Source: Minisyncoccota bacterium (GTDB taxonomy: Bacteria > Patescibacteriota > Minisyncoccia > Phycocordibacterales > UBA9973). Taken from it: 44,485 nt of DNA. Each line of letters opens with the position of its first letter. Positions within the stretch are counted from its first letter, which is position 1. The notes below the pieces were generated by a model, which had not been told where the DNA came from, did not search any database, and was given only the letters and a program-made list of their open reading frames with translations. The stretch is from assembly GCA_041667145.1 (NCBI GenBank), contig JBAYFP010000005.1, forward strand, positions 1 through 44,485. Reading direction: 5' to 3'. A program made the position numbers and the translations under genes. Positions 12,189 through 14,611 of the stretch are shown in pieces.

Positions 12189-12227
12189 AATCTTATTATA
12201 TCAGTTTCTTGTTATCCACAACAAAAA

Positions 12228-12255
12228 TTGACAGACAAATATAAAAGCATAAAAT
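12228..12255 (+). promoter_or_regulatory. strong sigma70-type promoter for the riboswitch-led operon
   Basis: TTGACA-N16-TAAAAT. A perfect DnaA-box 9-mer TTATCCACA lies just upstream at 12212-12220. Confidence 0.55.
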
Positions 12256-12285
12256 AAAAGAGTTCATTTAAAAAATCAAAAAAAT

Positions 12286-12487
12286 GCTTGGGGAAACTGG
12301 TGACCTGCTCGAAATGCTGCACATGCTGCAGGCGGGGATTCCAGTACAGTGCCGCTACGGTAAGTCCCAGACACCGATAGGTGTAGGGAACAAGTCCGAT
12401 TACCAATCATTTTATTAGTCCCGAGCAGGATATACCTTCTTATTTTTGAAGGCCCCAAATTCTGCTCACATAGCAGGATTTTTTTGT
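12286..12487 (+). promoter_or_regulatory. cobalamin (B12) riboswitch-like leader with a possible terminator/antiterminator platform
   Basis: Matches to the cobalamin riboswitch consensus, recalled from memory:
- GGGGAAACTGGTGA (12290-12303)
- ACTGG/CCAGT helix (12296-12300 / 12341-12345) enclosing an inserted CCTGC...GCAGG hairpin
- GCCGCTACGGTAAG (12351-12364; consensus CCCGCCACUGU)
- ACACC-GATA-GGTGT-AGGGAA (12371-12390)
- B12-box-like AGTCCCGAGCAGGA (12417-12430)

GAGCAG (12423-12428) can pair alternatively with CTGCTC (12462-12467). That competes with the CTGCT/AGCAG hairpin followed by T7 (12462-12485). Confidence 0.7.
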
Positions 12488-12499
12488 GCTCAATTTATT

Positions 12500-12916
12500 A
12501 TGAATAAAAAAGAAAAAATAAAAATAGGAGTAATTATAATTTTCTCAATTCTTTTAGGGACATTTTCATTAAAATTTTTTCAAACACGAAACTCCATACT
12601 CCCTCCTTTTCCCTCTCCTTATGTAGGAAAAGATAAAATAGGCATAAAAGAAATTGATACAGTTTTTACTGATGATATCCTCGGGCAAATAACTGTCTAT
12701 GACTTTATGAACAAACTTCAAAAAGAAGGAAAAATAAATTTCAAAGATAAAGAATACACTGGCATGGGAAAATTCATAGAAGAAATAAACGGAATAAAAA
12801 ACAGTGATAAATATTGGATTTATTATGTGAATGGTAAAAAAGCAGAAATAGGGATCTCAAATTATAAAATTAACTATGGAGATATAGTCTCATGGAAATA
12901 TGAATCCCAGTACTAG
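12500..12916 (+). CDS. membrane-anchored DUF4430 (transcobalamin C-terminal beta-domain-like) protein
   Basis: N-terminal TM helix, then GKFIEEINGIKNSDKYWIYYVNGKKAEIGISNYKINYGDIVSWKY, typical of DUF4430. The start is placed at the ATG at 12500 because 12446-12499 overlaps the leader hairpins. Confidence 0.7.
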   Translation: MNKKEKIKIGVIIIFSILLGTFSLKFFQTRNSILPPFPSPYVGKDKIGIKEIDTVFTDDILGQITVYDFMNKLQKEGKINFKDKEYTGMGKFIEEINGIKNSDKYWIYYVNGKKAEIGISNYKINYGDIVSWKYESQY

Positions 12917-12935
12917 AGCAAAGCTCAGTACGGGA
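12905..12935. repeat. palindromic element, variant form, copy F (overlaps the stop codon of the DUF4430 gene)
   Basis: TCCCAGTACTAGAGC-AA-GCTCAGTACGGGA. Related to copy E (38295-38346), with GTACT in place of GTAGT. Confidence 0.55.
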
Positions 12936-12946
12936 CAAAAAAAATT

Positions 12947-14611
12947 ATGAAAAACATAAAAAAAATTTTATACTTGTCATTTATTTTAATATCCCTTCCA
13001 TTTCACATTTTTGCTGAAGATATAACACCAGAAGTAATACCACCAACATCTATAAATATTCATCTGACTATAAGTACTAACACGAGCTCAATATACGATA
13101 AAAATATAGATGTCGAAGCTTGTAATAGCGATAATGCAAGTACAACAGAATTAAAAGTCACAGCCTATTGTGCGATCTTGCAGTCAGGAATTCAAAATGA
13201 CTGGAATTGGAGCTGGCCTCCAGGTGCCTTTTTAAATTCTCTTAATGATATATCCGGCTACACGAGTAAAGACAAAGACGATAAAGATGTCTATCATTAT
13301 TGGAGCTGGTCATTGAATTCTACTGAAGGTACAGTCGGATTAAACCAATATGAATTAAAACCTAATGACTTAATTTCTTTAAAATTCATTGACCCTATCG
13401 AACCAGACCCGGTCATACCCCCTCCTCTCCCAGAACCAGAGCCAACACCTGAACCAACACCTGAACCAATAGTGATTCATAGAGGAGGTGGTAGACCAAC
13501 ATTTTCTGCCCCTACTCCCCCTCCGGAAAAAATAAAATTCGATCTCAAAAAAGCTACTGATTTCATATTTTCACAACAAAAAGAAGATGGATCTTTCGGT
13601 GAAAATTTATACACTGATTGGGCATCTTTAGCTATTGCATCAGATATTTCATACCCTGAACAGAAAATAAAATTAACTAAATACCTTTCAGAAAATAATT
13701 TACCAGACAGTTCTCTAATTACTGATTACGAAAGACATTCAATGTCACTAATGGCACTGGGTATTAATCCATATAATGTAAACAATGAAAATTACATTAA
13801 AAAAATATTAGATAGTTATGATGGAAAACAATTTGGTAATGTTGAAGAAGATAATGATGACATCTTTGCTTTAATCGTTCTCCAAAATGCTGGATATACA
13901 AAAGAAGACAATATAATAAAAGATACTGTCACTTATATAATATCCAAACAAAAAGAAAATGGGTCTTGGAATGATAACGTAGATATGACAGGTGCTGTCA
14001 TACAGACTTTAGCTTTTTTTAATAATGAAAAAGATCCCCTCCCAACCTCCCCCTTAGCAGGGGGAGGAGAAATCTCAAATGCTTTAATAAAAGCAAAAGA
14101 ATTCTTAAAACAAAATCAAAAAGATGATGGAGGATTTGGTAATGTCTCTTCTACTGCTTGGGCGATAGGAGGCATCACCGCGTTATCAGAAAAGCCTGAA
14201 GATTGGACTAAAAATAACAATACACCACTTGATTATTTAGGGGCAAAACAAGATACTGATGGAGGAATAAAAAATACTGATTTACAAAGTAAAATCTGGG
14301 AAACTAGTTATGTCATCGCGGCACTCTCTCAAAAAACCTGGAATCAAATAATGCAAAAATTCGAAAAACCAGAAGAAATTCTTCCTTCTACATCCAATTC
14401 AATTTCCCCTTCACCAGGTGAAGGGGAAAAACCAATCATTACAAAAAATACTATCAAAAAACCCTCAAAAACAACAAAAACACAAACTCTGCAGGATCTA
14501 GCATCACAAAATACTGCCACAGTGATTAACTCTTTAGAAGAAAACAATTTACAATCAACAAAAAAAAGCTGGTTTAGAAATTTACTAGATAAAATTTTTA
14601 GTTTTTTCTAA
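12947..14611 (+). CDS. secreted protein: DUF4430-like domain + Pro-rich linker + prenyltransferase/terpene-cyclase-like alpha/alpha-toroid repeats
   Basis: Signal peptide. The N-terminal domain ends YHYWSWSLNSTEGTVGLNQYELKPNDLISLKF (DUF4430-like). A PPPLPEPEPTPEPTPEP linker follows. Four repeats are of the Q-x2-DG-[SG]-[FW]-G type (SQQKEDGSFG, SKQKENGSWN, QNQKDDGGFG, AKQDTDGGI). Confidence 0.65.
   Translation: MKNIKKILYLSFILISLPFHIFAEDITPEVIPPTSINIHLTISTNTSSIYDKNIDVEACNSDNASTTELKVTAYCAILQSGIQNDWNWSWPPGAFLNSLNDISGYTSKDKDDKDVYHYWSWSLNSTEGTVGLNQYELKPNDLISLKFIDPIEPDPVIPPPLPEPEPTPEPTPEPIVIHRGGGRPTFSAPTPPPEKIKFDLKKATDFIFSQQKEDGSFGENLYTDWASLAIASDISYPEQKIKLTKYLSENNLPDSSLITDYERHSMSLMALGINPYNVNNENYIKKILDSYDGKQFGNVEEDNDDIFALIVLQNAGYTKEDNIIKDTVTYIISKQKENGSWNDNVDMTGAVIQTLAFFNNEKDPLPTSPLAGGGEISNALIKAKEFLKQNQKDDGGFGNVSSTAWAIGGITALSEKPEDWTKNNNTPLDYLGAKQDTDGGIKNTDLQSKIWETSYVIAALSQKTWNQIMQKFEKPEEILPSTSNSISPSPGEGEKPIITKNTIKKPSKTTKTQTLQDLASQNTATVINSLEENNLQSTKKSWFRNLLDKIFSFF
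14046..14067. repeat. GC-rich hairpin embedded in frame in the CDS
   Basis: CCTCCCCC-TTAGCA-GGGGGAGG, encoding ...SPLAGGGE.... Confidence 0.8.
14403..14429. repeat. 27-bp perfect palindrome embedded in frame in the CDS
   Basis: TTTCCCCTTCACC-A-GGTGAAGGGGAAA, encoding ...ISPSPGEGEKP.... Confidence 0.85.

Follow-up and report, generated by a model that had tools for sequence, protein, structure and literature searches.

The window analysed in this work is a 44,485-nt stretch of DNA from a Minisyncoccota bacterium (contig JBAYFP010000005.1, positions 1 to 44,485). Within it, a divergent intergenic region (12189-12499) is followed by two genes on the same strand, gene 1 (12500-12916, +) and gene 2 (12947-14611, +), with 30 nt between them. 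An earlier reading of the letters alone, which we call the original prediction, had proposed that a cobalamin (vitamin B12) riboswitch drives here a two-gene "disassembled transcobalamin" module. Following up this proposal, we found a conserved promoter, a riboswitch leader ending in a terminator, and two predicted extracellular proteins with folds like those of transcobalamin (TC). We read the locus as an extracellular corrinoid-capture operon under a cobalamin OFF riboswitch, with a probability of about 0.75, in which both the RNA and the proteins are predicted to bind the ligand.

As a comparison set we used 80 fetched loci encoding gene-2 relatives, one per species-level genome (L001-L080). 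In 76 of them, gene 2 is directly preceded by gene 1, and the contigs of the remaining four are truncated. Homologues of both proteins run into the hundreds (502 for gene 1), and their named sources are nearly all metagenome-assembled genomes of Patescibacteria, Paceibacteria or Nomurabacteria. From these sources the host can be placed as a Patescibacterium, in line with the reduced-genome host that had been supposed earlier; the GC content of the genome is 34%. Metagenome contigs were also scanned for the invariant core of the riboswitch, which gave more than 120 stretches. The first 80 were taken for gene context, and in 44 of these the core is followed by gene 1.

The best promoter of the region is a sigma-70-type site on the plus strand, with TTGACA (12228-12233) and TAAAAT (12250-12255) separated by a 16-nt spacer (11/12 matches). 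It is the same site that had been singled out before as a strong promoter, and both hexamers are kept at identical spacing in nearly all related loci. We infer that transcription starts near 12262.

To begin with the identity of the leader, an Rfam scan of the whole window at the gathering threshold reported rRNA and tRNAs alone, with no cobalamin match. This null result was misleading and would by itself have led to a wrong rejection of the riboswitch; the isolated leader and the comparative data resolved the question. The RF00174 covariance search of the leader, which the original prediction had suggested, gave a full-length match on the plus strand (12242-12425, 27.9 bits, E=1.9e-5), with no competing Rfam family on either strand and nothing better on the minus strand. 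Among 19 orthologous loci whose leaders were scanned against Rfam, 16 carry a cobalamin-clan riboswitch above the curated threshold (32.4-43 bits), on the same strand and 500-870 nt upstream of gene 2; two orthologous leaders fit RF01689 better. We then used a window-blind covariance model, R1, built from 45 leaders with the window itself left out. R1 has a single match in the 44-kb window (12256-12430, +, 125.1 bits, E=4.3e-28), and of the 80 loci, 70 contain a match, in each case upstream of gene 1 and on the strand of the genes. The score of the window falls within the range of the family (50-149 bits).

Covariation supports the same fold. When the alignment of the 45 leaders was read against a cobalamin-type structure of 26 pairs, 95.5% of the cells were paired and 17 of the 26 pairs showed compensatory double changes. 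None of 500 shuffles reached as high, and slid controls fell to 19-48% paired. For instance, P5 switches from AG/CU to UG/CA in four divergent leaders. By homology, the leader at 12256-12430 (+; aptamer plus conserved 3' block) is a real cobalamin riboswitch, predicted to bind its ligand.

We next assigned the parts of the RNA, all on the plus strand. A closing helix pairs 12281-12291 with 12403-12413 and shows compensatory changes across loci. It is followed by the GGGGAA core block (12290-12295), P4 (12296-12300 with 12341-12345), the invariant L5 loop UGCCG (12350-12354), the core block GCCGCUACGGUAAG (12351-12364), a variable and covarying P6 stem (12364-12391) and the B12 box AGTCCGATTACC (12393-12404), which was placed by both covariance-model alignments. 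GGGGAA, GCCGCUACGGUAAG and AGUCCGAUUACC (12393-12404) are invariant across the 45 leaders and match the model consensus. The hallmark blocks named in the original prediction can be sorted accordingly: GGGAA-N3-GGTGA and GCCGCTACGGTAAG are real core blocks, whereas CACC...GGTG is only the variable P6 stem. The B12-box-like AGTCCCGAGCAGGA turned out not to be the B12 box; it was dropped in favour of AGTCCGATTACC, and belongs to the expression platform. Two further helices were rejected. The outer P1 of the Rfam alignment (12242-12262) overlaps the conserved −10 box and therefore lies upstream of the likely transcription start. A minimum free energy (MFE) pairing of UGCUUGGG with CCCGAGCA, considered as P1 or as an anti-aptamer helix, is specific to the window and amounts to only 5 bp in other loci.

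The window leader is collinear with the orthologous aptamers, and its main difference is a 33-nt optional hairpin (12304-12336) in the loop of P4, the GGUG...CC helix, which appears as an insertion in both covariance-model alignments. It is because of this hairpin that the RF00174 score lies below the threshold. A similar insert occurs at the same spot in at least seven other loci (L021, L034, L039, L049, L059, L061 and L062), and it is therefore a natural polymorphism and not a sign of decay. Compared with RF00174 (clan CL00101), the RNA shares the core GGGAA..GGUG, the block GCCGCUACGG, the B12 box form AGUCCG..ACC and helices P3-P6; it likewise stands 5' of B12-related genes and has a terminator platform of the OFF type. 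It differs in being compact, without a long P6 extension, and in having the optional P4-loop hairpin and a lineage-specific invariant block, CCCGAGCAGGA. One riboswitch variant (L015:2049-2291) is extended in the P6 stem by about 130 inserted nt, so that its covariance-model match falls into two parts.

Downstream of the aptamer, we found the elements of a transcriptional switch. The near-invariant block TCCCGAGCAGGA(T) (12419-12431, +), present in 62 of 71 leaders, is the predicted 5' strand of an antiterminator. TCCCGAGCAGGA itself (12419-12430) is separate from the aptamer, and in several loci an extra hairpin stands in between. It is followed by an intrinsic terminator, AAATTCTGCT / CACAT / AGCAGGATTT plus a T-run (12457-12485, +; hairpin 12457-12481), found by a terminator scan and ending 14 nt before the ATG of gene 1. 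Of 62 leaders, 61 have an equivalent hairpin with a T-run, and the median distance from its end to the start codon of gene 1 is 9 nt. In the window, GAGCAGGAT (12423-12431) can pair with ATTCTGCTC (12459-12467), or else the terminator hairpin and its T-run can form. As the original prediction had proposed for an attenuation mechanism, the two pairings are mutually exclusive. Across the family, 41 of 61 leaders allow GAGCAGGAn to pair with the terminator's 5' arm over a stretch of seven or more contiguous bases, compared with 0.9% of shuffled arms. In its layout, the conserved promoter with the antiterminator/terminator pair thus corresponds, as far as sequence can tell, to a transcriptional OFF switch.

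How ligand binding might be passed on to the platform is suggested by analogy. The platform block can form a small P13-like hairpin, UCC[CGAGCA]GGA, whose stem changes from UCC/GGA to UUC/GAA on both sides in two divergent leaders (L072 and L079). A GCCG:CG(A)GC pairing would be possible between the loops UGCCG and CGAGCA, both of which are invariant. Characterised cobalamin riboswitches have an L5-L13 kissing loop, and a similar contact between L5 and the small hairpin may couple the platform to the aptamer here. We therefore envisage that the promoter drives a leader of about 240 nt holding the compact riboswitch. At low intracellular cobalamin, the invariant block GAGCAGGAU would pair with the terminator 5' arm to form the antiterminator, and genes 1 and 2 would be transcribed. 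Once cobalamin is bound to the aptamer, GAGCAGGAU would be withheld, most likely through the contact between L5 and the hairpin, and the terminator would form ahead of gene 1.

Gene 1 encodes a protein of 138 aa with an N-terminal transmembrane helix (aa 3-28), a variable linker and an extracellular DUF4430/SLBB beta-domain (aa ~47-135). The match to PF14478 is clear (54.1 bits, E=2.2e-14; gathering threshold 23.8 bits), in agreement with the membrane-anchored DUF4430 protein that had been predicted. The AlphaFold2 (AF2) model has a strand (47-51), a helix (66-75), a hairpin (81-86/90-96) and two further strands (105-110 and 129-135). At moderate model confidence, this is a beta-grasp fold with a beta-hairpin inserted after the helix, the signature of the transcobalamin-like clade (PMC1796856). 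In Foldseek searches, the top matches of the model were exclusively beta-domains of TC, intrinsic factor (IF) or haptocorrin (HC), or 3U7Z, a bacterial DUF4430 structure. The template modelling score was 0.65-0.68 to the isolated TC beta-domain and to 3U7Z, and 0.65-0.69 (target-normalised) for the beta-domains of TC, IF and HC, which bears out the fold comparison with transcobalamin suggested at the outset. Matches of gene 1 to designed enzymes in PDB sequence searches (8bp0 and others) were discarded as chance.

Gene 2 encodes a larger protein of 554 aa, which we divided by Pfam, the AF2 model, Foldseek, hhalign and alignment blocks. A signal peptide (aa 1-23) is followed by a diverged DUF4430 beta-domain (36-148), a disordered Pro/Glu linker (149-195), a single 12-helix alpha/alpha toroid (196-470), a disordered spacer and an amphipathic tail, KKSWFRNLLDKIFSFF (aa ~539-554). 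The beta-domain is paralogous to gene 1 but has diverged from it (hhalign probability 95.5%, E=1.3e-8). It scores 17.9 bits for DUF4430, under the 23.8 threshold, and DUF4430 matches 14 of the 23 gene-2 family members that were checked for domain and motif statistics (best E=2.5e-10). The Q-x-(D/N)G-x-(F/W)-G repeats lie at residues 210, 335, 389 and 435, with DGKQFG at ~293. All the parts listed in the original prediction, namely secretion, a second DUF4430-like domain, a PEPEPTPEP linker and four repeats, were located.

The toroid has two sets of structural relatives. Foldseek ranked class II terpene cyclases first (E~4e-6), followed by the alpha-domains of TC, HC and IF (E~2e-4). PF01122 (Cobalamin_bind) gave a borderline score (25.2 bits, cutoff 25) over residues 375-425 alone and matches 8 of the 23 family members. 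BLASTP found a 35-residue, 40%-identical stretch shared with verified human TC residues 235-267 (E=0.002). Of the families that the original prediction had named for checking, PF14478 is clear for gene 1, and PF01122 is marginal for gene 2. The idea that the operon uses the two transcobalamin folds in an altered order agrees with what we found: gene 2 runs from beta to alpha, and gene 1 adds a solo beta-domain. Mammalian TC, IF and HC (PF01122 plus PF14478) have the same two folds. They differ from gene 2 in domain order; gene 2 has a long disordered linker and is accompanied by the solo beta-domain protein, identity is about 13-16%, and receptor-binding features are not evident.

The tail consensus K-K-x-W-F-x2-L-L-x-K-I-F-x-I-F (14561-14608) ends all gene-2 relatives. 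It also ends toroid-less beta-domain proteins (L128, L137, L145 and L159), and may be a lineage-specific signal for surface retention or sorting. Another conserved feature is the nearly invariant cysteine pair C59/C75 of the gene-2 beta-domain. Genes for DsbB-like, thioredoxin-like and DsbD_TM-like proteins are clustered not far from the module (16787-17737 and 20375-21984, −), and, given this cluster and the cysteine pair, extracellular disulfide formation may matter for these proteins. Gene 2 also contains GC-rich perfect palindromes in frame, at 14046-14067 and 14405-14427 (+), CCTCCCCC-N-GGGGGAGG and TCCCCTTCACCAGGTGAAGGGGA. Similar in-frame palindromes occur at L004:2719, L032:2212, L045:2089 and L048:2031 (in the gene-1 linker), in disordered loops and linkers of secreted proteins. 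CCTCCCCC-N-GGGGGAGG encodes DPLPTSPLAGGGE, and its sporadic occurrence among homologues suggests that the palindromes are small elements inserting in frame.

We then looked at the genes around the module. Homologues of the S component of energy-coupling factor (ECF) transporters, DUF6580, NrdJ and PduO were searched for in the window, and none was found. No ECF/CbiOQ transporter genes occur in the window or among the recurrent neighbours of the 80 loci. The absence of an adjacent transporter, already remarked in the original prediction, extends to the operons of close relatives, which keep the gene order of the window. The sole transporter candidate among the recurrent neighbours, a major facilitator superfamily permease, was rejected as lying two genes off in a separate transcription unit. 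Other recurrent neighbours are DsbB-like and thioredoxin-like proteins, diacylglycerol kinase, DoxX and a CPBP protease.

In other relatives, the module lies among B12 genes. ECF S-component homologues lie 0-3.5 kb from it in nine divergent loci, and in L072 a DUF6580 gene (4192-4734) directly follows gene 2. In at least 16-17 loci, the riboswitch is immediately preceded by genes for a class II ribonucleotide reductase (RNR) and a PduO-type adenosyltransferase. The NrdJ-like protein has an ATP-cone, an RNR barrel and a B12-dependent RNR insertion domain, and the PduO match reaches 129 bits. A B12 "island" made up of an ECF S-like gene, the class II RNR and the PduO-type gene thus stands immediately upstream of the module in some Patescibacteria (L100:1922-5357, L140:1465-5064 and at least 14 further loci). 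The same riboswitch type also precedes other genes. In L154 (core 1751; genes ~1989-5550, +) it is followed by DUF6580, CobU, a Diphthami_syn_2-family ATP-pyrophosphatase, CobT and CobS, and DUF6580 is thus a candidate corrinoid transporter family. Elsewhere it precedes toroid-less secreted beta-domain proteins with the same linker and tail (the four loci named above), or proteins with the TC order of toroid and beta-domain together with an anchored DUF4430 protein (L136, L138 and L141, the last with an ECF S component). The context of relatives therefore supplies a B12 consumer, an activation step and two candidate importer families, and adds to the case for a corrinoid ligand. In L107, L115 and L161, the first open reading frame (ORF) after the riboswitch encodes an extremely acidic, low-complexity protein of 491-849 aa, with no signal peptide and no Pfam match; its ends are conserved (N-terminal MDTFDT..EFKLEYEGTFVLSTL, C-terminal LDGHEILLQILG..NLNGITLKI).

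Putting the two proteins into this setting, we propose that gene 2 is a secreted, domain-swapped analogue of transcobalamin, whose beta-domain and toroid, joined by the flexible linker, would sandwich the corrinoid, and whose tail probably keeps it at the cell surface. Gene 1 would be a solo beta-domain tethered to the membrane, next to which it would bind the corrinoid or take it over. Import would then depend on a membrane protein encoded elsewhere in the genome, for which relatives offer an ECF-type S component or DUF6580 as candidates. In relatives, the imported B12 would feed the PduO adenosyltransferase and the adenosylcobalamin-dependent class II RNR. The order of hand-over between the proteins and the identity of the transporter are conjectural in this scheme. 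Overall, the earlier interpretation is supported, as every part of it that is computationally testable held, with B12 binding by the proteins being inferred.

Proteins of this class were already predicted in 2007, in the work of Burroughs, Balaji, Iyer and Aravind that set out the SLBB superfamily and, within it, a transcobalamin-like clade (PMC1796856). They described bacterial secreted fusions of SLBB and toroid domains in either order in Gram-positive bacteria, operons encoding a second paralogous SLBB protein, and hosts without B12 synthesis, and they predicted B12 scavenging. Gene 2 resembles those proteins in joining a secreted SLBB domain to a toroid, which is C-terminal as in their Bacillus example, and the operon resembles theirs in having a second paralogous SLBB protein, often found alongside. 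It differs in that the CbiO/CbiQ (ECF) genes usually associated in those operons are missing from the operon in the window. The word riboswitch has 0 occurrences in that paper. Therefore, the description of the module as a poorly characterised system stands, but it is not an undescribed one, since both the architecture and a role in B12 scavenging had been predicted in 2007. The "disassembled transcobalamin" is, on sequence grounds, a rediscovery of that predicted class. What is new here is the lineage, the riboswitch control, the separation from a transporter and the context in relatives. In the literature we found nothing linking these proteins to a riboswitch or to Patescibacteria, and nothing on DUF6580 in this role.

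Several observations weigh against the corrinoid-capture reading. On the RNA side, the window aptamer is below the RF00174 gathering score (27.9 vs 31.5 bits), its closing helix has one C.U mismatch (12287/12407), and the kissing-loop idea rests on invariant loops and just two sequences with compensatory stem changes. On the protein side, the confidence of the AF2 models is moderate (pLDDT 68.5 for gene 1 and 76 for gene 2), the best sequence and fold matches of the toroid are class II terpene cyclases and not transcobalamin, and transcobalamin was missed by the PDB sequence searches, whether the query was gene 1, the profile of either gene or the isolated toroid. No transporter, B12-dependent enzyme, adenosyltransferase or cob gene was found within the 44-kb window. 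Finally, heme is the ligand proposed in the sole experimental study of a related system of two proteins (10.1101/864751).

If no importer is fed, the module may instead serve corrinoid sequestration and competition, or attachment to a host cell. Patescibacteria are often episymbionts, and an operon without a transporter gene in the window and in close relatives, together with the long disordered linkers and the surface-retention-like tail of gene 2, would suit such a lifestyle. However, an uptake system is what one would expect to be repressed by intracellular B12, several relatives have ECF-S or DUF6580 genes together with the module, and a B12-consuming enzyme and an adenosyltransferase adjoin it in at least 16 loci. 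We thus regard this alternative as quite unlikely.

The proteins might also bind another tetrapyrrole, such as heme, or some other soluble ligand in place of a corrinoid. The ligands of the SLBB superfamily are diverse (PMC1796856), and in Lactobacillus sakei a pair of co-encoded secreted proteins with beta-like and alpha-like TC domains, Lsa1839/Lsa1840, is linked to heme uptake (ECF Lsa1836-1838; 10.1101/864751). In that system, the two domains are on separate proteins within an ECF operon, whereas the system in the window fuses beta and alpha, adds an anchored beta-domain and stands under a B12 riboswitch. Moreover, the closest solved folds bind cobalamin, the module adjoins NrdJ and PduO, and the same riboswitch type governs CobU/T/S in relatives. 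A ligand other than a corrinoid therefore appears very unlikely to us.

A further alternative is that the toroid is an enzyme, a class II terpene cyclase or prenyltransferase-like protein acting on an isoprenoid or a cell-envelope substrate, with B12 control being incidental. Squalene-hopene cyclase or drimenyl diphosphate synthase comes out best in Pfam, NCBIfam, PDB sequence and Foldseek comparisons, and gene 2 shares with these enzymes QW-like repeats and a DNDD motif; the nearly invariant D-N-D-D-I-F-A-L of gene 2 resembles the DxDD motif of class II cyclases. Class II cyclases use two barrel domains, but gene 2 has one 12-helix toroid only, and TIGR01787, TIGR01507 and TIGR03463 give 30-39 bits, far under the NCBIfam cutoffs of 322-851. 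Unlike these enzymes, gene 2 is secreted by a signal peptide, fused to a B12-type beta-domain and under a cobalamin riboswitch in about 70 genomes, and variants without the toroid retain the beta-domain and the tail. An enzymatic role is highly improbable on this evidence. That the leader in the window is a decaying, non-functional riboswitch is hardly credible, since the leader keeps every invariant core position, the platform block and the terminator intact, and what speaks for decay (a score under the Rfam gathering threshold, the 33-nt insert and the C.U mismatch) is set against a recurrent structured hairpin and 125 bits with the lineage model.

The corrinoid-capture reading, if correct, bears on a family of bacterial transcobalamin-like proteins that has been a prediction since 2007, nearly without biochemistry, and that is a proposed source of the B12 carriers of animals. 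Control by a cobalamin-sensing riboswitch is independent regulatory evidence for a corrinoid as the ligand of the family. The roughly 70 natural variants, which include toroid-less, TC-ordered and duplicated forms, could be used for structure-function work. A dependency of Patescibacteria is also suggested, in which B12 scavenged from neighbours is adenosylated by PduO and used by the class II RNR for DNA precursors.

Upstream of the promoter, we noticed a conserved motif, TTATCCACA (12212-12220, +), 7 nt from the −35 hexamer, which we assign to the system only tentatively and which presumably is identical to the DnaA-box consensus. Of 70 genome leaders, 40 carry the form TT[AT]TCCACA, 36 of them exactly 7 nt from the −35, and so do 42 of 80 metagenome leaders; in the 1.04 Mb of locus sequence over which the background was counted, it has only 67 copies. 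It is retained where the upstream neighbour is PduO rather than a cytidylyltransferase gene. One might imagine a two-step relay in which tail-tethered gene 2 passes the corrinoid to anchored gene 1, which would serve DUF6580 as an importer family not recognised before, with the promoter also gated through the TTATCCACA site. We consider this elaboration unlikely; were it true, B12 capture would be tied to replication and, through the adenosylcobalamin-dependent RNR, to the demand for deoxynucleoside triphosphates. Two further perfect copies of TTATCCACA lie in an intergenic region on the minus strand (15715-15723 and 15761-15769), 46 nt apart, and one of them falls within the loop of an inverted repeat of 20 bp, CAGACGTTGGACGTCTGGGAG / TTCCCAGACGTCCAACGTCTG. 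The arms of this repeat recur back to back at 7329-7369 (+), in the upstream part of an RNase J ORF, and these palindromic arms are also present in L063.

Downstream of gene 2, a long hairpin between an A-run and a T-run (14613-14695, no strand assigned) is more stable than all of 200 shuffles (MFE −34.9 kcal/mol, z=−6.63). It is a bidirectional terminator that ends both the operon and a convergent gene (14678-15295, −). The latter encodes a 205-aa protein with only a weak, sub-threshold Vasohibin match, and is kept at this position, convergent with gene 2, in 59 of the 80 loci. The edge of the window cuts through a 16S rRNA gene, of which the 5' part is present (1-366, −). Insertions in rRNA are common in bacteria of the candidate phyla radiation, and in this gene an insertion of 38 nt stands in place of 3 nt in the bacterial model.

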